Origin: Patescibacteria group bacterium
GTDB lineage: Bacteria > Patescibacteriota > Patescibacteriia > UBA9934 > GWF2-40-263
Direction of reading: 5' to 3'
Length of the DNA stretch: 56,365 nucleotides
Assembly: GCA_038065075.1 (NCBI GenBank)
Contig: JBBTRQ010000023.1
Span: 1-56,365 of the forward strand
Positions 2,387 to 15,527 of the stretch are shown piece after piece. Under the pieces are notes generated by a model that searched no databases, had not been told where the DNA came from, and saw nothing but the letters and a program-made list of their open reading frames with translations. The position numbers and the translations under genes are program-made. Numbering within the stretch: the stretch's first letter is position 1; the number at the start of each line of letters is the position of its first letter.

Positions 2387-3037
2387 TCATCTCGTAAGCG
2401 AGATGATGACCATATCGTCCTCGGGCAAATCCTTGCGGGTCACTTTATATTTATTCATATCCTCACGGCGGCACGTCCCGAAGGCTTTGCAAAATGCGTC
2501 GACAGTCCCCAGCTCCTCCTTGGCTCCCGCAACCGCATGCGTCATGGGAATGACCACGCGCGGTTCGATCTGCGAAATCACTTCGGCGGCGACTTTGGGA
2601 TCCATTACACGTCCGCCTCCGACCGGGATCATCAAGATATCGATATTCTCAAGCTTCTGAAGTTCCTCATCGGTCAACGCGCGATCCAGGGCTCCAAGAT
2701 GGGCCAGACGCATCCCTTCGGTCTCAATGCGAAAAATCAGATTCGGCACGGGTCTCCCTTTTTCTTCACGTTTGAGTGGCGCGGAAACACCGAACACAAA
2801 AACACTCCGGACTTCAAACTCGCCCGGGAGGTTAATGAGATAAGGATTGCCTGTGACGGCCTCAAGATTATTCGCGTCCTCTTCATCGTGTGACACCAGG
2901 AGCACCTCGGCCTCTAGCGTGCGGGGGAACCGCAGACCCGTCGAATTCTGGTAGGGGTCGGTCACGAGACGGACGTCAGCCCCGGCGGTTTTGGTTGTGA
3001 TCTCAAACGAAGAAAATCCGTTCCAAGAAATTTGCAT
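2387..3037 (-). CDS. MBL-fold/UPF0173-like metal-dependent hydrolase homolog (216 aa)
   Basis: Pattern VTDPY..LLVSHDEEDANN..IPMTH resembles UlaG/YtkL-type beta-lactamase-fold proteins. The start is preceded by the conserved leader GTAGTGAGCCTGTCGAACT. Confidence 0.55.
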   Translation of the reverse strand: MQISWNGFSSFEITTKTAGADVRLVTDPYQNSTGLRFPRTLEAEVLLVSHDEEDANNLEAVTGNPYLINLPGEFEVRSVFVFGVSAPLKREEKGRPVPNLIFRIETEGMRLAHLGALDRALTDEELQKLENIDILMIPVGGGRVMDPKVAAEVISQIEPRVVIPMTHAVAGAKEELGTVDAFCKAFGTCRREDMNKYKVTRKDLPEDDMVIISLTR

Positions 3038-3063
3038 AGTTCGACAGGCTCACTACAGGTAGC

Positions 3064-3750
3064 TTATTCTTCCTCAGAAAAGGTGTCCTTCCAATATTCG
3101 ATTTCTTTCTTGACGATCTCCAGCTCCGGATCAGGTTCGGTGATCAAAAAGCCTTCACGGAACCGCGACACCTTACCCTTGATTTCCGCCTGTTGGTTTT
3201 CGTCGCCGCCCTGCGCGAGCTGTTCAAGTTCAGCAATGGCTGTCTGAATCTTGTCCGCCTCCTGCGTCCATTTGTCGACAAGTGCCTGGTACTGTACGGC
3301 TTGCTCACCCACGCGATTTTTCAAAATCTCGGCGAGCTTGTCCTTGGCGACCAAGATCCCGTCTTCGACTTGGTAGCGTTGCTTGGCATCCAGGGACTCC
3401 GTAAACAAATCACTCGACACGAGGGCTTCCAAACTCACACCCGCGTCGAGGTGCGGCTTGATCACGCCACGAACCGTTTCGTCGACATGGTCTAGCACCA
3501 TCTTTTTGAGCATCTCCTCGGCGGTCGAGCTGGTCAGCTCTTCATACGCACGACGGTAGGGATACTCCTTCATGCCGATCGTATAGAACGCGTGCTTGAT
3601 CGCCGCCTCATCGAGCGCCTCATTTGTTGCGAGGTCATCGTGGATCCTCTGAGCCTCCTCTTTGATCATGGGAGGGAGCGTCGGCACAAAGTGCTTTATC
3701 GCGTACTGAAATTCTTCGAGCATGGACTGGTGTGGATGCATACTGGGCAA
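3064..3750 (-). CDS. hypothetical protein (228 aa, helical/coiled)
   Basis: Long clean ORF with backbone composition. No motif recognised. Confidence 0.55.
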   Translation of the reverse strand: MPSMHPHQSMLEEFQYAIKHFVPTLPPMIKEEAQRIHDDLATNEALDEAAIKHAFYTIGMKEYPYRRAYEELTSSTAEEMLKKMVLDHVDETVRGVIKPHLDAGVSLEALVSSDLFTESLDAKQRYQVEDGILVAKDKLAEILKNRVGEQAVQYQALVDKWTQEADKIQTAIAELEQLAQGGDENQQAEIKGKVSRFREGFLITEPDPELEIVKKEIEYWKDTFSEEE

Positions 3751-3752
3751 AG

Positions 3753-4136
3753 TTAGACTGATTCTGTGTGTAGTTTAAACCATTCTGCGATATCTTCAAT
3801 ATCCAACCTATCCACGACAATCTTCACAGCAAAATCTTCGATGCTCCGTCGTGGGCCATTGAATCGGTAACCGTTGAGTTGGAGAAACGTGATGGCTGTG
3901 CTCATTCCCGTGCGTTTATTCCCATCGACGAAGGGATGGTTCATCATGATCGAACGTGCGTAGACAGCGGCTTTCTGTAAAATCGTCGGGTAAAGCTCCA
4001 ACCCAAACGACGCCTGAAATGGAAGAGCGGCGGCGCTGCGTAGCGAGCTTAGTTCACGAATCCCGTCTGACCCACCCGTTCTACGGATAACGGCGGCGTG
4101 AATCAGCACCATGTGCGCGGCCGTAATCTGTTTCAT
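3753..4136 (-). CDS. doc: Doc/Fic-family toxin (127 aa from MKQITAAH)
   Basis: Fic/Doc motif HPFVDGNKRTG. ATG at 4136 lies 1 nt after the antitoxin stop. The longer 184-aa ORF in the track is an upstream extension. Confidence 0.85.
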   Translation of the reverse strand: MKQITAAHMVLIHAAVIRRTGGSDGIRELSSLRSAAALPFQASFGLELYPTILQKAAVYARSIMMNHPFVDGNKRTGMSTAITFLQLNGYRFNGPRRSIEDFAVKIVVDRLDIEDIAEWFKLHTESV

Positions 4137-4137
4137 G

Positions 4138-4377
4138 TTAACGGTCGGCCAGAGATTCAAAGTCCTCACGATAACGCTCAAGAACATCCAGAGCGATAGA
4201 GAGAACTTCTTTGTCACGTTCTGAGAGAGACACAACGGGTTTGATGGAGACCGCACGTTGTGCCTGATCAAATTCAAGCTCAACCTGGTCGCCGACATGC
4301 AGGCCAAGATTCTCCATCGCGCCTTTGGGGATAGTCACCGCAGCGGATGTTCCGACTTTGATAATTTTCTGTGCCAT
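4138..4377 (-). CDS. AbrB/SpoVT-fold antitoxin (Phd-like partner of Doc)
   Basis: MAQKIIKVGTSAAVTIPKGAMENLGLHVGDQVELEF is a swapped-hairpin AbrB/MazE signature. The gene is coupled to doc. Confidence 0.8.
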   Translation of the reverse strand: MAQKIIKVGTSAAVTIPKGAMENLGLHVGDQVELEFDQAQRAVSIKPVVSLSERDKEVLSIALDVLERYREDFESLADR

Positions 4378-4638
4378 ACTAATCCTATTCTAATGCAAAA
4401 AACCGCTCTCGTCAATTTTACAGCTATTTGTCGGAGACGGAGCCTACGACCTGGTTAGCGATTCTGCATCTCGTTGACATCATAACGAGCGCGACATACG
4501 CTGAGCTTCCTCGCTGGGACCCCCCACGAGACGTGGCAATCCAGCCACAAAGGCGCCCTTAAGTGACCTGATCGATCCGCTGCGGCTATCGAGCTTAGGC
4601 GGTCGAAAAAAGGTGTCACGCGGGGCAAGGAGACGTCG

Positions 4639-5859
4639 ATGGCAAGTGCAGACCCTGTTCGAGTGGATACGAAGCGCCTCCAGTGGCTCCTGGAGCGTGT
4701 GACTGCGGGAGCTGACTGGATCTCGGACGCGCAGGTGGAAGCCTTCGGCCGCAGGCCGGATGGTCCCATCATGCCCAGCTCGCACATCGTGCTGCGTAGC
4801 GTCCGGCTCCTCGAAAGCTACGGGATGGACGAGAACGGCAAGCCGTTCATCAGCCCCGTCACGAACGGACCGGAACTCCCGGTCGTGCAGGTCGCAGCTA
4901 ACCGCGCGGGGGAATGCTTCCTCCTGGCGCGCTGCGCGAGCGGCTACGTGATGGATACCTACGAGCTCGAGGCACCCAACCCCCAGACCATCCTGCACTT
5001 CGGCACGTACGGCCACGAGACCGCACGCGGACACGAGATCGCCACGTACGACCTGACCAGGGCGAGCATCCTGGGCTTCACGGCAGAAGGAGTGCCGGTC
5101 ATGTCCCAGTGGTCCAGTACGCTTGAAAAGGGGGAGGCCCCGCGTTCTTTCACGGGAGTCTGGCAGGGCGACCAGCTCATGGAACACGAGAGCACGAGCC
5201 CGTGGGAGTCCGTCGGCTTCGCGCGTGTCAGCTACGACGGGACGATCCTCTCGACGCTGCGCAACGTGCGTGACCACGCCATCCTGCGCAACGGCAAGGT
5301 GGTCGCTGGCTCGCCGCCCAACCTCGTCTCCATTGACGAGATGGCCGCGACCGCCAACGGCGAGATCTTCACCCTGTCGCGTCCCCACTCCAAAGTGCCG
5401 TACAGCCTGCTCCCGTTCTACGACGCGGTCTGGCAGCAGCCCCTCGTGGTGGGGCGTGGCGCCGAGCTCTTCGACCTCCTCTCCACGCGCCTGGGCGTGG
5501 TCGTGATCGGCAGCGACTACCGTCGTGTACACGCCTACGTTGTGGAGTCGAACATCATCGGTGGCCACTACACCGGCACCGTCATCCACCTGCACGACCT
5601 AGGACCCAAGGACGAGTACCGACGCGGGTACACGCCGCTCTCGGAAACCGACTGCGCCTATGTCCGCCGCTCGCGTGACGGGATGGAGCAGTGGGCGTTC
5701 CGACTGGGCGGCGAGGGCAATGCCGTCTTCTCCCACGGCCCCAGCTTCGACCGCGTGAGCGAACTCTTCCGCCACGGCGACGCCTTCCACTACTGGGCGG
5801 TCGCCGACCGCTACCTCCACCTGGTCAAAATTCCAGACGTTCCTGCGTCGAACCTCTGA
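4639..5859 (+). CDS. hypothetical protein (406 aa) in a GC-rich cassette
   Basis: Longest ORF of a GC-rich block; the 371-aa antisense ORF and several others are shadows. AAGGAG lies 6 nt before the ATG. No family recognised. Confidence 0.6.
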   Translation: MASADPVRVDTKRLQWLLERVTAGADWISDAQVEAFGRRPDGPIMPSSHIVLRSVRLLESYGMDENGKPFISPVTNGPELPVVQVAANRAGECFLLARCASGYVMDTYELEAPNPQTILHFGTYGHETARGHEIATYDLTRASILGFTAEGVPVMSQWSSTLEKGEAPRSFTGVWQGDQLMEHESTSPWESVGFARVSYDGTILSTLRNVRDHAILRNGKVVAGSPPNLVSIDEMAATANGEIFTLSRPHSKVPYSLLPFYDAVWQQPLVVGRGAELFDLLSTRLGVVVIGSDYRRVHAYVVESNIIGGHYTGTVIHLHDLGPKDEYRRGYTPLSETDCAYVRRSRDGMEQWAFRLGGEGNAVFSHGPSFDRVSELFRHGDAFHYWAVADRYLHLVKIPDVPASNL

Positions 5860-5894
5860 CCCTCTCTCCGGTGTCCCTCGCGACACCGGGCTCG

Positions 5895-5922
5895 CCCGCC
5901 ATAGCTTCACAGCGACGGCGGG
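5895..5922 (+). terminator. CCGCCATAGC..GCGACGGCGG hairpin element copy followed by a T-run (likely terminator of ORF 4639-5859)
   Basis: CCCGCCATAGCTTCACAGCGACGGCGGG followed by TTTTCATTTT. Confidence 0.55.
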
Positions 5923-6132
5923 TTTTCATTTTCCGCCCATTTGTCGGTGGCCCCGCCTACGACCTGGTTGAAACAACCTCATCCCAATCTATCGACGTAC
6001 CAGAAGATCCTCCCATCATTTGCGCGTGAGTCGCCGATACGTTCAGGAAAAAGAGAAGGGAGACGATGACGGTGATGGTTTTTCTCATATTGATGATGAT
6101 GTTGTGTGTGTTCTGACGGATCCGGAACGTGG

Positions 6133-7260
6133 TCATGTCGCCACGATTACCTGGGGCTTTTCAAGTTTGCCTTTGTATCGCGCGCCAATTTGCACCGTTC
6201 CAACCACAGATCGTGGCGCCACACCATATTGCTTTCCTGGTTTACCAGCCATGGCATGCTGATGACTGGGATCGAAGATGACGCCTCGTTTCGGAACAAG
6301 TAGTTCGATCTTCGCATCTGGCAGGAGTTTATTCAGGAGCGTTGTAACAGCCTCCAGCCACAATTCTCTTGTCTCATCCGTATAGTCTGGTGCGGATCCA
6401 TCTATGTGGGAAAAAAGATGATTCTCGTCCAGCGGTTCTGTATCGTTCAACTCTGCAAAACCACGACCAAGGCGTCTAAAAATATTCCCGATCATTGAGA
6501 TGTTGAGTGTTTTGTCTCTTGTCCAATCATCAAGTATGGGTTTCATGTCGATATCCACACCTTGCGCCGTAAGCCATTTCTCGGGAAAATCGAACGTCTT
6601 TTCCATATCACGAATGAGCTCTTTTTGTTCGGGTAGTAAATTGGCTATTCTCTCATATTGCTTAGCCATTTCAATATTTGTTTGTTTATGCGGTTGTGCT
6701 TCTACCACCTCATTGTCTGGCTCTGGCGCGTCTACACTGGCTTTGCTGCCTTCCCGGGTCATCATGTACCACTTGATCCATTGTCGCAGGTTGTCGACAT
6801 CCATCCTATCAATGACGGTTTTTCGGACGGTCGGATCCTCCTTGAACATACTAAGCAAGACTGTCCGATCATGTCCGGCAAGCTCTTCCATGATCTGGCG
6901 GCGTCCATCCTCATCCGCATTACGTCCATAGTGGCCTGCAATCCACCCACGCAATTTTTGATCGTCCATGTTTTCAACAATGGCATCCTGCAAGTCCGCT
7001 TCCTCTTCTATCAGCTCGATTAAATCTTGCCTCTCGTAGGCCGCAAGCGCCTCATCAATCTCATCTTGTTCTCGGTCAGGATTCGTCTGCTTTGGGTCGC
7101 TTCCCCTAGCTCGCTCCCCCGCGAATGTTTCTGGTCGCATAGATGTGTAGATAGAAGTTATCAGAGACCTCTGCAAAAGATCTGTGTAGTCATCTTGCTT
7201 CAACCATTCAATGATCTTAGCCAAGTCTGTGAGATAAAGCCAATGTCGTCTCCGCTTCAA
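6133..7260 (-). CDS. hypothetical protein with GrpE-like C-terminal domain (375 aa)
   Basis: The C-terminus AKIELLVPKRGVIFDPSHQHAM..VVGTVQIGARYKGKLEKPQVIV resembles the GrpE beta-domain (FDPxxHxA..GY..G..RPA.V.V). The long acidic N-terminus is unassigned. The ORF appears to begin with TTG, so the start is uncertain. Confidence 0.45.
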   Translation of the reverse strand: MKRRRHWLYLTDLAKIIEWLKQDDYTDLLQRSLITSIYTSMRPETFAGERARGSDPKQTNPDREQDEIDEALAAYERQDLIELIEEEADLQDAIVENMDDQKLRGWIAGHYGRNADEDGRRQIMEELAGHDRTVLLSMFKEDPTVRKTVIDRMDVDNLRQWIKWYMMTREGSKASVDAPEPDNEVVEAQPHKQTNIEMAKQYERIANLLPEQKELIRDMEKTFDFPEKWLTAQGVDIDMKPILDDWTRDKTLNISMIGNIFRRLGRGFAELNDTEPLDENHLFSHIDGSAPDYTDETRELWLEAVTTLLNKLLPDAKIELLVPKRGVIFDPSHQHAMAGKPGKQYGVAPRSVVGTVQIGARYKGKLEKPQVIVAT

Positions 7261-10419: not shown

Positions 10420-11409
10420 ATGTCAGGAGGGAAAAAATCCACAATGCTCTACCGTCCGTTTTTGCGTGAGGCTTGGCGTCTCACGTGGGAGCACAAGAGC
10501 TTGTGGATTTTTGGTATCTTCGCGGCGCTCATCTCGACCGGCGGAGTGGTGGACGTGGTGTGGCGAGCGTTGGAAAAAGTCACACGAACAGAATCACTCC
10601 TAGAGAACCTGGCGGACGCATCTTTCCTGGGCTACGACGTCGCCGCAAGCTACATCGGTCAGCTCGCCGTGCTGGGACCTGAGCGGACAAGTTTCATCGT
10701 GATCGTCTCAACGCTCACGGGAATCCTTCTCATCATCATCGCTACACTTTCACAAGGCGCGCTCCTTCTGGGAATCCAAACAAAGACCCCGAAAGATCCT
10801 TATGCCCTTCGTCGAGAAGCAGGTACACATTTCTGGAGTCTGTTCCTGATCGGCGTCCTGAACAAACTGTTGATGCTCATCTTGGTCGTCCTCATGACCC
10901 TCCCGCTCCTCTTGGTCTCCCTCTCCACAAACCTCGGCCACAGCCTCCTCTTCCTCGCGCTCATGCTCCTCTTTATCCCCGCGACGATCATCCTCAACAT
11001 CGTCTACATGTTCGCGCTCATCGACGTCGTGGAAACAGACGCCCATCCCCTATCGGCCATTCACACGGGGCTGAGACTCTTTGCAAAACAATGGCTCGCC
11101 ACCCTCGAGTACGGCATTATTCTCTTCCTGCTCGTCTTTGGCGCGGGACTACTTCTCCTGATTGGGGTGAGTCTCTTGCTGGTGCCTCTCTCGATCGTCT
11201 ACGCCGCCACCCTCCTTACGGGTTCCTTCTCGTTCTTCCTCGCCTTCAACGTGGTCGCGGCGCTCCTCGTCTTTGCCATCATCCTCACTTTCGGCGGCGC
11301 GTGCGTCACCTTCCAATACAGCGCCTGGTACCACTTCTACAAACACGGCCTGCACAAGGTGCATGGAAAAAAGGTGTTCTCAAAAATCCTGCGGTTGGTG
11401 AAGCGATAG
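10420..11409 (+). CDS. polytopic membrane protein, unknown function (329 aa)
   Basis: Six or more hydrophobic segments. No catalytic motif recognised. Confidence 0.6.
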   Translation: MSGGKKSTMLYRPFLREAWRLTWEHKSLWIFGIFAALISTGGVVDVVWRALEKVTRTESLLENLADASFLGYDVAASYIGQLAVLGPERTSFIVIVSTLTGILLIIIATLSQGALLLGIQTKTPKDPYALRREAGTHFWSLFLIGVLNKLLMLILVVLMTLPLLLVSLSTNLGHSLLFLALMLLFIPATIILNIVYMFALIDVVETDAHPLSAIHTGLRLFAKQWLATLEYGIILFLLVFGAGLLLLIGVSLLLVPLSIVYAATLLTGSFSFFLAFNVVAALLVFAIILTFGGACVTFQYSAWYHFYKHGLHKVHGKKVFSKILRLVKR

Positions 11410-11450
11410 ACGCTAAAAAATCCTTTCAAGAACAGAATCATCATTCCGTC

Positions 11451-11488
11451 AAAAAACAATTCTGTCCGACCGGACACAATTGTTTTTT
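11451..11488. terminator. bidirectional intrinsic terminator
   Basis: AAAAAACAATTCTGTCCGACCGGACACAATTGTTTTTT: an A-tract, a near-perfect palindrome and a T-tract. Confidence 0.6.
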
Positions 11489-11538
11489 GATTCACTCACA
11501 GATTCACAATATTACAAATACCTACGTATGATCACAGA

Positions 11539-11572
11539 GATACAATAGTGTCCGATCGGACATTATTGTATC
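11539..11572. promoter_or_regulatory. 34-bp near-perfect palindrome (candidate operator or recombination site)
   Basis: GATACAATAGTGTCCGATCGGACATTATTGTATC has one mismatch and no flanking T-run. It shares the core TGTCCGAYCGGACA with 11451-11488. Confidence 0.35.
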
Positions 11573-11588
11573 TGGTCCGTGACACCCT

Positions 11589-11616
11589 CTCTGGACAGAA
11601 TCATCGTTTTGGTCTA
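11589..11616 (+). repeat. left direct repeat flanking GC-rich cassette
   Basis: CTCTGGACAGAATCATCGTTTTGGTCTA compared with 12179-12205. Confidence 0.8.
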
Positions 11617-11678
11617 GTCTTCCAAGTCGTTCATCGACAAACGGGCACCATTCCGGTGTCCTAGACAGGAGTGCTCCA

Positions 11679-12092
11679 ATGAAGGCTCGTCTCCCCGCCG
11701 CGCTGTCCGTTGCAATCTTCCTCTCCTTTGTTGTCTGCGGCGCTTCGGCGGTCGCGGACGACTACCCGACCTGCAGGAACGACAACTCGATCCTGCGGGA
11801 TCGCGATCAGATGATCCCGCTCGCCGAGCAGGGCTACGAATCGGCTCAGTCGAAGGTCGTGAGCTTCGACATCCAGATCCACGAGATCTGCCTGTGCACG
11901 CAGGTCGAGTGGGATCGACTCGATGCCGAGTACACCGAGACCACCATCGCCTACGCCGATGGCCGAGGCATGCCGGTTCGCCTGGCCAAGCCGGTCGTCA
12001 TCAGCCAGCCACGCCCCGAATGCGTCGCTCCCGCGAAGCGCTCGTGGCATGAGCAGGAGCCGGTGACCGAAGTGGACCCGATCGAGAACTAG
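11679..12092 (+). CDS. small secreted protein (137 aa), GC-rich cassette
   Basis: Signal peptide MKARLPAALSVAIFLSFVVCGASAVA. AGGAG lies 7 nt before the ATG. Confidence 0.6.
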   Translation: MKARLPAALSVAIFLSFVVCGASAVADDYPTCRNDNSILRDRDQMIPLAEQGYESAQSKVVSFDIQIHEICLCTQVEWDRLDAEYTETTIAYADGRGMPVRLAKPVVISQPRPECVAPAKRSWHEQEPVTEVDPIEN

Positions 12093-12122
12093 CCGCCTGT
12101 CTCTCGCCGTCCACGCCTCAGT

Positions 12123-12152
12123 CGCCCCGACTCCCTACGGGCGGCTTTTTTG
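12123..12152 (+). terminator. intrinsic terminator of cassette ORF
   Basis: CGCCC-11 nt-GGGCG followed by GCTTTTTTGTTT. Confidence 0.6.
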
Positions 12153-12178
12153 TTTCCAGGCACGACACAAAAGTCAGA

Positions 12179-12205
12179 CTCTGGACAGAATCAACGTTTG
12201 GTCTA
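12179..12205 (+). repeat. right direct repeat flanking GC-rich cassette
   Basis: CTCTGGACAGAATCAACGTTTGGTCTA differs from the left copy by one substitution and one T indel. Confidence 0.8.
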
Positions 12206-12213
12206 AGAACCTC

Positions 12214-12504
12214 TCAAAAACTCTCCTGCATGTAATCGATCACAATTGAAATAATGCGTCTCACGGTAAGATTGCAATTTTTGAAGTGAAGTTTTTCGAT
12301 CACCTCGACGCCCTCTTGCCGAATCACGTCACTGATAAGTGCGTGAATAAACGATTGCGTCGCTCCATTAATTCCATCAAAATCTATAATAATTTCCTTT
12401 CCTTTGGACACGATCGGCAGGATGTCCTTCAAGCGGATGTCCCTGGCAACATCCTTATTTTCAGCAAAAGATCCTACCAAAGAAGCGAGGCTGATAGTCT
12501 TCAT
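12214..12504 (-). CDS. STAS-like (DUF4325-type) protein (96 aa)
   Basis: IIIDFDGINGATQSFIHALISDV is the typical DUF4325/STAS-like pattern. The gene overlaps the upstream ATPase gene by 4 nt. The unit is low in GC (~40%). Confidence 0.6.
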   Translation of the reverse strand: MKTISLASLVGSFAENKDVARDIRLKDILPIVSKGKEIIIDFDGINGATQSFIHALISDVIRQEGVEVIEKLHFKNCNLTVRRIISIVIDYMQESF

Positions 12505-13568
12505 ACAAATCTTGGCTCGACTTTACGTCGAGCTTTTTTTCTTGCACGAACGGCGGCGCTGTACACTTCTCTTAATGACTCGAGTAACTGGTCAAACTCA
12601 TTTGTTGCATCCAGGGAGATATCAATGCCGACAACGGTTCCTTGCCATCGTGGTAATCCTTCCTTGACTGTGTGGCGATCATCAAATGGATCCGCGTGAA
12701 GTTGGAACGCCTGATCTTTTTTGTATTTTAACAGCTTGTACAGCGCATCCCCGCTATAAAGCACAAAGTGGGTTCGGTTCACCGCCGCAATGGACTTGGT
12801 AAAAAATAAGCCCGCACCAGCATTCCGTTCGGTTCCCCCTTCGCGGGCTGTGGTTCCGGTGATACCGGGCATAAGCGCCAGTCGGATTGCTTCTAGATCC
12901 GAATGAACGAGGTATGATTGTGAAATGGTTTTTTTGATCCCTACACCTATATCCGCGATGCCGATTCGAATCATGTTGCTTCGTGCGTGATACTGCGCCG
13001 ATAAGACTGCCCCTTGTTTTGACTGCGCATGCTCAAGTACGTTTCTCACCATTTCGCTAAAAACATATTGAATCGGCTCAGCATGCTTGGGACTCAGGTG
13101 AAGCAACGGGATAATTTCCGTAAGTACACCGACTAGCTCGCCCGTATTTCGAATCTGTCTGAGAGGAATAAAGCGACCCGCTGGTTCGTGTAATGTAATA
13201 TTCATGCCTGACTCGATACCCAAAAACTTAAACAGACCCATGCGTTCAAGATAGTGCTTTGACGTGGCCTCAAGCTTCTCACAAAAAACAGACTCATCCC
13301 GCACACCCAAACCCAAAATAGCGATCATGGACAAAACGAGCGGATGGAGGGATATCCATTTTTTGTTCGCCGTTATCTCTAGCGTTCCCGGATTCAAAGG
13401 ATCAAAACCTCTAAAAAAAGCTTCGATGTTCCCGATAAACGCACTATTAGGAAGATGTATCTTCATGTCAATAAAATACCAGGATTTTCGTTTTTCGTCA
13501 AAATATGCAAATCCCGGTAAATTTCGCATAAAGCGATCCACTTCCCTGTTGTAAGGAATAAAAGACAT
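12501..13568 (-). CDS. GHKL-superfamily (histidine-kinase-like) ATPase
   Basis: N box EMVRNVLEHA, G1 IADIGVGI, G2 GTERNAGAGLF. The start is set at MSFIPYN (ATG 13568); the track extension to 13646 runs into GC-rich foreign DNA. Confidence 0.7.
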   Translation of the reverse strand: MSFIPYNREVDRFMRNLPGFAYFDEKRKSWYFIDMKIHLPNSAFIGNIEAFFRGFDPLNPGTLEITANKKWISLHPLVLSMIAILGLGVRDESVFCEKLEATSKHYLERMGLFKFLGIESGMNITLHEPAGRFIPLRQIRNTGELVGVLTEIIPLLHLSPKHAEPIQYVFSEMVRNVLEHAQSKQGAVLSAQYHARSNMIRIGIADIGVGIKKTISQSYLVHSDLEAIRLALMPGITGTTAREGGTERNAGAGLFFTKSIAAVNRTHFVLYSGDALYKLLKYKKDQAFQLHADPFDDRHTVKEGLPRWQGTVVGIDISLDATNEFDQLLESLREVYSAAVRARKKARRKVEPRFV

Positions 13569-13653
13569 GGATCTCCTCACGCTGGAGGAGGCGAACCAGA
13601 TCACCGACATCAACGACAACACCATCTTCCGCGCGCTGGTCTCCAAGCGGTAG
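13567..13653 (+). CDS. 28-aa ORF resembling the N-terminus of excisionase/MerR-type HTH proteins (possible remnant)
   Basis: MDLLTLEEANQITDINDNTIFRALVSKR* in a GC-rich patch. It is followed by a terminator similar to that of cassette 11679-12092. Confidence 0.3.
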   Translation: MDLLTLEEANQITDINDNTIFRALVSKR

Positions 13654-13726
13654 CCCAGCCTTCCACGCGCCTCCCTCTCCAGGGCGGCTTTTTTGTTTTA
13701 TCGATTCCCTGGTAAACTAGAGCCAC

Positions 13727-13773
13727 AAAAGATTGCTTCGTCCCCCTCGAAAGCTCGGGGTCCTCGCAATGAC
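13727..13773 (+). repeat. REP-like hairpin AAAAGATTGCTTC-(GC hairpin)-CTCGCAATGAC
   Basis: The same termini occur at 38287-38340 with a different central hairpin. Both copies lie just upstream of gene starts. Confidence 0.7.
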
Positions 13774-13784
13774 GAGGAAAAATT

Positions 13785-15527
13785 ATGTCAAATGATATCC
13801 ACTCAATCGAAGACCTCCTGAAATACACCGGCGCGAATGCGGCGACGCAGACACCGTCCAAAGCCGGAGACCGTTCGACTGTCGAGAAGTTTGACGAAAA
13901 GATGCACGACGTGCGGCTCAAGGAAAAAGAGACGGAGGCACAGGCACAAGCACAGACGCTGGGAGTCTCTTACGTGAACCTCAAGGGGTTCCCGATTTCT
14001 CCAGAGGCACTGCGCCTTGTTCCTCAGGAGCGAGCCGAGGCGTTAAAGACGGTATGCTTTTTGTTTACGGGTCCTGAAATCCGCTTGGCGTCCCTCAATC
14101 CCACTGACCAAGCGGTGAAAGATCTGCTCTTCGAGTTGCAGGAGCGCCACAAAGCCAACGGTGGTGTCTACAAAATTACCGATGAAAGTTACCGCGTCGC
14201 GCTCAAGGCCTATGACACGCTCCCCAAGATCAAAGAAATCGTGAAGGGCGTGAAAGTGACCGACGACGAGCTCGAAAAATTCAAAAGCCAACTCACGGGG
14301 TACGCGGACGTCCAAAAAGTGATGGACAACGCGAGCGTCACGGACATCATGACCATCGTCATGGCCGCGGGTCTGCAATTTGGCACCTCCGACGTTCACA
14401 TCGAAGCCGAGCAGTCTAAAATTGTCGTGCGCTTCCGTGTGGATGGTGTCCTCCAAGAAGTCGCCAGCCTTCCCCACGACTTCTGGAAAAAAATCATCGC
14501 TCGCATCAAACTCATTTCCGGCCTTAAGATCAACATCACGGATCGACCACAGGATGGACGATTTACCATTTTTTTGAAAACAGGTGACACCGACGTGCGT
14601 GTCTCCACCATTCCGACCACCTGGGGCGAGTCGGTCGTGATGCGTATCTTGAAGCCCAGCGCCATCAACGTTGAATTCGAACAACTTGGTTACCGACCAC
14701 TCGCGGCCGCAAAACTCTTGAAAGAAATCGAGAAGCCACACGGCATGATCATGACCACCGGTCCAACCGGCTCTGGAAAAACGACGACGCTGTACGCGAT
14801 CCTGCGAAAACTCAACACGGCCGACGTGAAGATCATCACCTTGGAAGATCCCATCGAGTACAAACTGGAAGGCATCAACCAATCTCAGATCGAACAGTCC
14901 AGAAACTACACGTTCGCCGGAGGACTACGCTCCATCCTGCGACAAGACCCGGACATCGTGATGGTCGGAGAAATCCGTGACCTTGAAACCGCCGAGGTGG
15001 CGATCAACGCGGCACTTACGGGACACCTCATGCTCTCGACCTTGCACACCAACGACGCCGCGGGTGCCATCCCGCGCTTCATCTCCATGGGCGTCAAACC
15101 GTTTCTCCTTGCTCCCGCGCTCAACGCGATCATCGGACAACGCCTGGCTCGCAAAGTCTGCGAGAAATGTAAGGAGCTTGTGACCCTGACCCCGGAAGAA
15201 CTCGAGCTCGTCCGAAAGGTCGCCACACAAATTCCACCTGCCTCAGGCGAAAAAATTGCCCCCGAGAGCGAGTGGAAATTCTACAAAGGCAAGGGATGCG
15301 AGGTCTGCAATGGAACCGGGTATAAGGGTCGAGTCGGCCTCTACGAAATTCTCACCATGAGCGACTCCATCAAGGGCGCCCTCTCCGAATCCATTTCTGA
15401 ATACCAAGTCCGCGAGCTCGCCAAGGAACAAGGCATGACCACCATGCTTCAAGATGGCATCCTCAAGGTGCTCGACGGAGTCACAACGGTGGAGGAAGTA
15501 ACGAAAGTCGCCGGACAAGGAGAATAA
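13785..15527 (+). CDS. pilB: type IV pilus assembly ATPase PilB/GspE family (580 aa)
   Basis: Walker A GPTGSGKTTTLYA, Asp/His boxes, a CEKCKE..CEVCNGTG tetracysteine motif, and an N-terminal GspE_N-like domain. Confidence 0.85.
   Translation: MSNDIHSIEDLLKYTGANAATQTPSKAGDRSTVEKFDEKMHDVRLKEKETEAQAQAQTLGVSYVNLKGFPISPEALRLVPQERAEALKTVCFLFTGPEIRLASLNPTDQAVKDLLFELQERHKANGGVYKITDESYRVALKAYDTLPKIKEIVKGVKVTDDELEKFKSQLTGYADVQKVMDNASVTDIMTIVMAAGLQFGTSDVHIEAEQSKIVVRFRVDGVLQEVASLPHDFWKKIIARIKLISGLKINITDRPQDGRFTIFLKTGDTDVRVSTIPTTWGESVVMRILKPSAINVEFEQLGYRPLAAAKLLKEIEKPHGMIMTTGPTGSGKTTTLYAILRKLNTADVKIITLEDPIEYKLEGINQSQIEQSRNYTFAGGLRSILRQDPDIVMVGEIRDLETAEVAINAALTGHLMLSTLHTNDAAGAIPRFISMGVKPFLLAPALNAIIGQRLARKVCEKCKELVTLTPEELELVRKVATQIPPASGEKIAPESEWKFYKGKGCEVCNGTGYKGRVGLYEILTMSDSIKGALSESISEYQVRELAKEQGMTTMLQDGILKVLDGVTTVEEVTKVAGQGE

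Follow-up and report, generated by a model that had tools for sequence, protein, structure and literature searches.

The question which this locus raises is whether a single-gene unit lying between two nearly identical short direct repeats was brought in as a mobile cassette with those repeats as its ends, or whether gene and repeats came together by other means. The locus is part of a contig of 56,365 nucleotides (JBBTRQ010000023.1; the whole stretch is called the window here), whose host was placed in Candidatus Uhrbacteria of the Candidate Phyla Radiation (CPR) by the relatives of its pilB gene. Two repeat copies, R and R', enclose one open reading frame (ORF) for a small secreted protein, ORF137, which is led by a Shine-Dalgarno (SD) sequence and followed by a terminator. 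A first interpretation of this DNA, the sequence-only reading, had proposed a portable unit that arrived either by integration of a circle carrying a copy of the site or by recombination between short homologies. Comparison with other strains bore out that the unit is portable and strain-variable, as seen from gene-less alleles and from its context in a second species. R and R' as its integration junctions found no support, because R' exists without the gene and the breakpoints of the presence/absence polymorphism lie elsewhere. The second proposal came close to the explanation favoured here, which is held with about even confidence: R and R' would be a by-product of ordinary recombination between strain alleles at a variable spot, with the gene as a moron-like unit in a recombination hot spot. 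The parts of the repeat-bounded interval are the following.

11589–11616, forward strand: R (CTCTGGACAGAATCATCGTTTTGGTCTA), left copy of the repeat and upstream edge of the portable ORF unit; from a repeat search, with the second-species homology starting at 11591
11617–11678, forward strand: leader of 62 nt with a hairpin at 11643–11661 and the SD sequence AGGAG at 11667–11671; from sequence reading and folding
11679–12092, forward strand: ORF137, 137 amino acids, with a signal peptide (ASA/VADD cleavage) and four conserved cysteines, of an orphan family; from translation and homologue searches
12091–12153, forward strand: tC, intrinsic terminator of the unit; from folding and comparison with other terminators
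12154–12178, forward strand: sp', spacer between tC and R', identical in allele c (see below) and akin to the spacer that precedes R in the second species
12179–12205, forward strand: R' (CTCTGGACAGAATCAACGTTTGGTCTA), right copy of the repeat and sole copy in the gene-less alleles c and d; from a repeat search and allele comparison

The two copies form a direct repeat whose coordinates had been given exactly by the sequence-only reading. They are identical at 26 of 28 aligned positions, the differences being one substitution and one T in a T-run, and at 20 of the 21 positions of a core sequence. The spacing between them is 562 bp, which gives a repeat period of 590 bp, equal to one unit, and the interval holds a single SD-led ORF (137 amino acids) and its terminator. 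Two matches to the 21-nt core were yielded by none of 100 shuffles, so the pair is far beyond chance, and the 56-kb window contains no third copy of the core with up to three mismatches. A partial third copy had been placed at 11444–11454. The 11-mer in question (ACAGAATCATC, repeat family D2) actually lies at 11432–11442 and is close to chance at that length, as GGACAGAATCA with at most one mismatch gave 4 matches against 1.28 expected.

Several strain variants co-occur in the same wells, which would give room for the idea that the repeat is an assembly artefact in the form of a collapsed strain bubble, or else a chance repeat. The exact ORF137 protein was found on nine contigs, from wells H51 and H52 of the Hainich groundwater observatory, from two Logan assemblies and from the metagenome-assembled genome GCA_964359885.1, and the seven loci which were fetched are 99.7–100% identical to the window across the region. 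A contig of long-read type, with many frameshifts, carries the locus with both repeat copies, 593 nt apart. As the same two-copy arrangement is thus present in at least seven independent short-read assemblies, a metagenome-assembled genome and a long-read-type contig, R and R' are not an assembly artefact, and with the shuffles also speaking against a chance origin this explanation, which the sequence-only reading had itself named, retains next to no probability. A dispersed motif was rejected as well. R gave no extra copy in the window and was absent from the GTDB species representatives, from IMG/VR and from a metagenome contig collection, the last negative being weak because the Hainich assemblies are only partly included in that collection and short contigs known to bear R went undetected.

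Alleles were compared at the joint between the gene to the left of the unit, M329, and a two-gene module to the right of it. The module is convergent with M329 and is its resident neighbour in all alleles of the subclade. The flanking features are these.

10420–11409, forward strand: M329, gene of a conserved 329-amino-acid membrane protein and left anchor of the locus, whose last ~16 nt (from 11394) vary between alleles; from adjacency in ~25 species and allele comparison
11449–11490, no strand assigned: pal1, a palindrome of 20+20 nt that includes runs of A and of T, likely a bidirectional terminator of M329; from an inverted-repeat search
11503–11532, forward strand: match to a sigma-70-like promoter, TTCACA-18-TATGAT (10/12), between pal1 and pal2, a consensus match only; from a promoter scan
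11538–11573, no strand assigned: pal2, a palindrome of 18+18 nt belonging to the pal1 family, ending 15 nt before R; from an inverted-repeat search
12214–13568, reverse strand: low-GC two-gene module of a DUF4325/STAS-like gene (12214–12504) and a histidine-kinase-like ATPase gene (12501–13568); from Pfam matches

Five further versions of the M329/module joint were recovered through contigs that encode the exact DUF4325 protein or one of its closest relatives, and at least six co-existing versions were counted in the one aquifer. Alleles a to d are listed beside the arrangement of the window, e.

Allele a: M329 stop, 7 nt, module, without terminator and without R' (L065 from well H52, L070/L071 from H41)
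Allele b: M329, terminator (..CCGGGCGGCTTTTTTGTTT), 22 nt, module, without R' (L073, from another site, with the module 78% identical)
Allele c: M329, terminator (GTCGCCCACCCGGGCGGCTTTTTTGT), sp' and R' both identical to the window, module (L072 from H41)
Allele d: M329, terminator as in c, ~83 nt (pilB-promoter-like GGTCATTCCCTGTA, a hairpin and 14 nt), R', module (L067/L069 from H32)
Allele e: the window arrangement, pal1-promoter-pal2-R-leader-ORF137-tC-sp'-R'-module

Alleles c and d lack the gene and carry a single R'. As this R' stands behind the M329 terminator in both of them, it pre-exists independently of ORF137. Its left flank, that terminator with sp' added in c, is unlike the sequence left of R, and c and d are therefore not the product of a precise R x R' deletion. 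Such a product would read GTGACACC-R-AGAACCTCTC across its junction, and an excised circle tC-sp'-R-GTCTTCCAAG. At the level of contigs, as distinct from reads, the deletion product was found in none of the ten single-repeat or repeat-free ones recovered, against the easy loss by repeat recombination that had been predicted, and R and R' are not used together at any junction of the presence/absence polymorphism observed. Compared with allele c the window-specific segment is 11394–12137, its right breakpoint being inside the terminator at the shared GGGCGGCTTTTTTGT; compared with allele d it is 11394–12178. Beyond these points identity is first complete and then lost abruptly: allele c has no mismatch to the window over 12138–12252 and is then 11% divergent, and allele d is identical over 12179–12941 and then 8% divergent. 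L065 shows 99.7% identity over 12209–14006, but the 3' end of its M329 only 77–84%. Judged from the alignments, such sharp identity switches between diverged lineages read as the signature of homologous recombination tracts.

The region right of the M329 terminator in allele d has a counterpart at the other end of the module. The segment with GGTCATTCCCTGTA, in the form GGGCGGCTTTTTTGTTTT....ATTCCCTG.TA, lies left of the module in d and right of it, before pilB, in the window (13682–13713), and the two match at ~27 of 32 positions. The whole DUF4325/ATPase module may thus, to go by this resemblance, itself be bracketed by a duplicated terminator/promoter segment.

Portability became evident from a second species. 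The only diverged ORF137 homologue in a collection of 5.8 billion proteins, P0002, is encoded on L012/L014 from well H41, where pilB is 75% identical to that of the window at the DNA level. P0002 is 75% identical to ORF137 over the aligned 81% of the latter and 70% over its full length. The unit of R, leader, ORF and terminator (11591–12155) is 85.6% identical overall, with 96% in R, 83.5% in the coding sequence and 100% in the 63-nt 3' untranslated region with the terminator; R and the first part of the leader, at 96–98%, are conserved above the coding sequence. Both flanks of the unit differ. Upstream are 45 codons left over from another gene, X, then the terminator of that gene, tX, and a spacer of 16 nt, and downstream come unrelated sequence, a transfer RNA (tRNA) gene for serine and then pilB. 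The tX and spacer left of R in that species are homologous to tC and sp' left of R' in the window (p<0.0005), whereas the sequence left of the window's own R has no similarity to any other R flank and no remnant of a terminator or spacer (p~0.8). Among the four kinds of R copy, those with a terminator and spacer on their left continue into the ORF or into the module, and those which continue into the ORF are preceded by a terminator and spacer or by pal2. The sites that vary within R (T or A at position 15, T4 or T3) track the right-hand partner. With these contexts and the gene-less alleles, the ORF137 unit is a portable, strain-variable unit.

The favoured explanation would require two parents. 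One would be a gene-bearing allele of the form ...pal2-R-leader-ORF137-tC-module, hypothetical and with tC directly abutting ACCTCTCAAAAACTC, and the other a gene-less allele of type c, M329-terminator-sp'-R'-module. These would cross over unequally in the 15–17 nt shared by their terminators (GGGCGGCTTTTTTGT), with the left exchange in the 3' end of M329, and each would supply one copy of R, so that the window arrangement results. The agent would be general homologous or short-homology recombination acting on DNA exchanged among co-occurring strains, with neither a transposase nor an integrase. The shared 15-mer, which forms the 3' half of tC (12139–12153), is identical in tX of the window (13682–13696) and in the terminator which follows M329 in alleles c and d. 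An unequal crossover reproduces the breakpoints 11393/11394 and 12137/12138 as well as the identical tract from 12138 onwards, and it is favoured because all junctions fit with the fewest events; from these junctions we infer the direction of the events and the gene-bearing parent.

Several points weigh against it. No contig showed a gene-bearing parent that lacks sp'-R'; all those which carry the exact ORF137 or the exact M329 of the window are of allele e. The explanation does not account for why R follows a terminator in three contexts, nor for what R does. In two independent comparisons the point where homology begins lies no more than 2 nt from the 5' edge of R, a precision that a site-specific crossover would also give. 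The 115-nt identical tract around R', in lineages otherwise 9–11% apart, could be due to constraint and not to recent exchange. Finally, alleles a to d and the second species are known from short contigs only.

Some of the same data would also be accounted for by a circle, which extends the model of the sequence-only reading. A circle of ~590 bp (spacer-R-leader-ORF-terminator) could have entered a terminator-spacer-R' joint by a Campbell-type crossover, the pal1-promoter-pal2 stretch having later replaced the terminator and spacer on the left. Allele c is exactly the expected empty site, the second species shows the expected left junction of terminator-spacer-R-leader-ORF-terminator, and the 590-bp repeat period corresponds to one unit. 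The palindromes, being of a widespread and possibly mobile family, could have overwritten the left copy, and a remote ORF137 relative on L075 lies between ~100-nt terminator-bearing repeats with a period of ~617. This history however needs an extra replacement event, the sequence left of R is unlike any terminator and spacer (p~0.8), and the 3' end of M329 also varies between alleles. Neither the circular form nor an intermediate allele was seen among the contigs, and in the second species no spacer-R follows the terminator of the unit. We consider entry as a circle unlikely, though it is the main rival. Unequal and Campbell-type crossovers in general resemble the locus in that direct repeats flank the gained segment, the length of the repeat reflects pre-existing homology and not a fixed duplication, and the process is reversible; they differ from it in that the homology here is unusually short (15–28 nt) and the parental alleles are only partly observed.

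The position of the homology edges brings in a further possibility, in which R is an att-like crossover site of a dedicated recombinase encoded elsewhere, and the ORF unit and the DUF4325/ATPase module are tandem cassettes in the manner of an integron. Homology starts at 11591 with the second species and at 12179 with allele d, both at the 5' edge of an R copy, all four combinations of left flank (terminator-spacer or other) and right flank (leader-ORF or module) were observed, and R and its surroundings are 100% conserved between lineages which are 9–11% apart next door. Against this, among 50 ORFs which were scanned across the 56-kb window (Pfam E<=1e-5, in one scan E<=0.1) none matched a family of integrases, resolvases, transposases or tyrosine or serine recombinases, and no recombinase was among the neighbouring genes listed on the other contigs which carry the locus. 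R has neither dyad symmetry nor an attC-like fold; when 12090–12215 was folded as single-stranded DNA, the terminator hairpin alone appeared (z = -0.5), and a search of 11380–12300 for known RNA families of the Rfam type gave sub-threshold noise only. Within the window R is confined to the locus, and it was not met in the three collections searched. The breakpoint of allele c lies in the terminator and not in R, and in alleles a and b the module stands without a copy of R. A site-specific system at R is kept as a candidate because homology starts at most 2 nt from its 5' edge in two comparisons, and it has no other positive support; we regard a dedicated recombinase as very unlikely. Still more of a long shot is the wider version of the idea, by which R would be the site of an unrecognised CPR recombination system that moves R-headed modules of one or two genes behind terminators among co-occurring Uhrbacteria, its recombinase being encoded elsewhere or belonging to an unannotated family.

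R may also be looked at as a regulatory sequence. It contains a candidate -35 element TGGACA (11592–11597) which is followed after 17 nt by TAGTCT (11615–11620); in R' the equivalent is TGGACA-16-TAAGAA. The promoter scan did not call TGGACA-17-TAGTCT, and the -10 elements are weak. In the second species the match is conserved, and since a terminator lies 25 nt upstream there, the ORF needs a promoter of its own. R thus plausibly carries the promoter of the unit, on the strength of a weak consensus match conserved between two species. One may go further and suppose that R is mainly regulatory, as promoter or operator of ORF137, that R' is an antisense promoter directed at the DUF4325/ATPase operon, and that the duplication arose or was kept for regulation and has no part in recombination. 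The better conservation of R and the early leader compared with the coding sequence would agree with this. The uncalled -10 elements, the orientation of R', which points into the 3' end of a convergent operon, and above all the shuffled flanks, which would be left unexplained, count against it and make it quite unlikely as a complete account. The 27-nt repeat has no demonstrated function.

Comparison with known kinds of mobile unit narrows the choice in the same way. Target duplications of insertion sequences are short, 2–14 bp, and go with a transposase and terminal inverted repeats. Here the window contains no recognised transposase, there are no inverted termini, and the repeat is 27/28 nt long, imperfect and pre-existing in gene-less alleles, so that the sequence-only reading was right to call it too long for such a duplication. 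Integron cassettes and the VCR (Vibrio cholerae repeat) arrays of Vibrio are similar in being single-gene units bounded by a repeat, conceivably circular, and shuffled between contexts. They differ in that no IntI and no attI were found here, R is without the palindrome architecture or the R''/R' cores of attC, and no RYYYAAC/GTTRRRY pair of attC cores was seen on reading the locus sequence. Moreover the unit has its own leader and terminator, only two copies of R are present in 56 kb, and not all breakpoints are at R. An island targeted to a tRNA gene would differ as well, since R is unlike tRNA-Ser, no tRNA lies near the locus in the window and no integrase was found. R as a tRNA-derived attachment site was accordingly rejected, its likeness to the tRNA-Ser of L012 being at p = 0.14–0.8. 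That gene, a tRNA-Ser(TGA) at 874–949 of L012, lies between the ORF unit and pilB in the H41 species, a place where the window has no tRNA. On L022, directly after M329 (~5300–5345), there are a copy of the terminator that precedes this tRNA and ~9 nt resembling the tRNA 5' end.

The closest parallels are of another sort. A phage moron is an independent unit of promoter, gene and terminator (Cumby, Davidson & Maxwell 2012, PMC3594210). The ORF137 unit is like it in that one gene, with a terminator and apparently also a promoter of its own, stands between genes which are adjacent in relatives, in being present or absent between close strains and horizontally exchanged, and in having a relative (L074) with a strong GC contrast to its flanks. 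It is different in lying outside any phage or prophage, among ftsH, pilB, tsaE and tsaD and without phage genes in the vicinity, with R and palindrome patterns that have no match in IMG/VR, in having a GC content of 63.8% that does not deviate in the window, and in its flanking direct repeats, by which morons are not defined. Set against the properties of a moron, the unit has a clear terminator and a candidate promoter in R, a weak consensus match (conserved in L012/L014), it separates genes otherwise adjacent, and its composition does not mark it as foreign.

The minimal mobile elements of Neisseria, as defined in PMC3082526 (citing Snyder et al. 2007), consist of two conserved genes between which whole-gene cassettes differ from strain to strain and enter by homologous recombination. 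The locus agrees with this definition in that M329 and pilB are the conserved pair and the content between them differs: most species have nothing there, L022 has ORF181 and X157, L040 has duplicated Fic modules, and alleles a to e have the DUF4325/ATPase module, joined by ORF137 in e. No gene dedicated to mobility was recognised in the window, and the mosaic identity tracts suggest homologous incorporation, the events being inferred. The organism has genes for a type IV pilus, natural transformation of Uhrbacteria being unproven. The locus departs from these elements in that several crossovers apparently fell in short intergenic homologies (the 15–17-nt terminator half and the 27-nt R) and not in the flanking genes, and in that it is nested, being made up of a module, a gene unit and remnants.

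The gene itself belongs to a very small family. Among billions of proteins ORF137 has 3 close and 4 remote relatives only, no Pfam or PADLOC family matched it, and the AlphaFold model (predicted local distance difference test score, pLDDT, 51) is not usable. The four remote relatives came from an exhaustive profile search of 1.8 billion representatives, and two of them could be placed. On L074 an ORF of 68% GC has a perfect TTGACA-17-TATATT promoter and its own terminator between flanks of 40% GC. On L075 the ORF is bracketed by ~100-nt direct repeats (361–455 and 977–1073, 87–89% identical, period ~617) with a long terminator hairpin. As these two are likewise single-gene units, the family tends to travel as a single-gene transcription unit with recurring duplicated terminator regions. 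The L075 ORF has a TGA where its relatives have a conserved cysteine codon, and it is followed by an X-like gene (30% identical to X157).

The unit had been described as GC-rich in a low-GC host, which overstated the contrast. ORF137 has 63.8% GC compared with 54.8% for the window, whose genes range from 42 to 67%, at least eight others being at 60% or more. Its low-GC flanks are a 38% intergenic stretch (180 nt, left of R) and the acquired 45% two-gene module, not the host baseline. GC content was therefore rejected as a sign of foreign origin. In the leader the hairpin GGGCACC-ATTCC-GGTGTCC (11643–11661) stands just upstream of the SD sequence, and its pairing is kept in the H41 species through two one-sided changes, of G.U to A-U and of A-U to G.U. 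The fold of the leader has a z-score of -1.0 in the window, which is not significant, versus a significant -3.4 in L012. The terminator tC begins at the stop codon with a 10-bp outer stem (hairpin 12091–12146) which is followed by T6.

The spot at which all this took place is variable in a wider circle of relatives. In ~25 species representatives of Uhrbacteria the gene order is ftsH, M329, pilB, and the gap of 25–190 bp between M329 and pilB contains a conserved TCCTGGTAAACTAG promoter/leader element, which in the window begins near 13700. As M329 and pilB are adjacent elsewhere and the ancestral element starts only near 13700, the stretch 11410–13700 is a lineage-specific patchwork. Two features remain to be listed for its right end.

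13567–13699, forward strand: X', a 28-codon remnant of a 157-amino-acid gene, with its terminator tX; from comparison with L022
13700–13784, forward strand: ancestral pilB promoter/leader region (ATTCCCTGGTAAACTAG...), right edge of the patchwork; from comparison with other Uhrbacteria

Other species hold other cargo at the M329/pilB spot, which is for this reason a hot spot for accessory genes. L022 has an unrelated insertion of 1.7 kb consisting of ORF181 and X157, and L040 has 4.1 kb (2620–6670) made of a tandem duplication of a 251/259-amino-acid gene together with a gene whose translation contains a Fic-type motif (HPFVDGNGRIGR), one gene copy in the duplication being truncated. Gene X is intact with 157 amino acids in L022 (6200–6673), has 45 codons in the H41 species (L014, 193–330) and 28 codons in the window (13567–13699); a related terminator follows every copy, and the copies of L022 and the window adjoin the pilB promoter. 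No Pfam family matched gene X, and a homologue search with a 39-amino-acid fragment of it gave one further fragment only. A 46-nt part of the pilB leader (13729–13774) shares 81% identity with a segment that lies upstream of M329 in L021 (5886–5930). The DUF4325/ATPase module (42–47% GC) has more than 1000 DUF4325 homologues, with source names including CPR bacteria and DPANN archaea, and both of its proteins hit one PADLOC DrmA model, in each case in the N-terminal part of that model. The type IV pilus genes of the window comprise pilB and other T2SSE/T2SSF genes.

A widespread family of near-perfect palindromes, 28–34 nt long and with the consensus cgaACAATAATGTCCGATCGGACATTATTGTtcg, has pal1 and pal2 among its members. 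A pattern with 23 fixed bases matched 29 metagenome loci (L076–L104), none in IMG/VR and none in ~600 kb of GTDB Uhrbacteria loci, and at none of the 29 loci was R found beside a family member. Copies lie after terminators and also in pairs 45–75 nt apart as in the window (L078, L103, L090, L095). They are also found in frame inside long ORFs, including an apparent GTPase gene (with a G1-type motif in the translation) at the same position of three diverged contigs, L081, L088 and L098, where the context reads ...LPT-NNNVRSDIIVR-PRTVLVSD.... These placements suggest that the family is a small mobile palindromic insertion or a strongly constrained DNA or RNA site.

Regarding the biology of the host, the versions of the joint are built from few modules which are joined at short shared intergenic sequences, and some of the identity tracts are far more similar between lineages than the adjacent housekeeping genes. 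As such versions co-exist and the identity in some tracts exceeds that of the neighbouring housekeeping genes, homologous exchange among related Uhrbacteria populations appears to be frequent. The locus is a known kind of variable islet and reveals no new mechanism, and its value is mainly for the population genomics of CPR bacteria. The group concerned has, to our knowledge, no cultured representatives and few recognisable mobile elements. For these ultra-small bacteria the locus provides an allele-resolved example of how gene content changes, and it marks the small secreted cysteine-containing protein ORF137 as a strain-variable trait.

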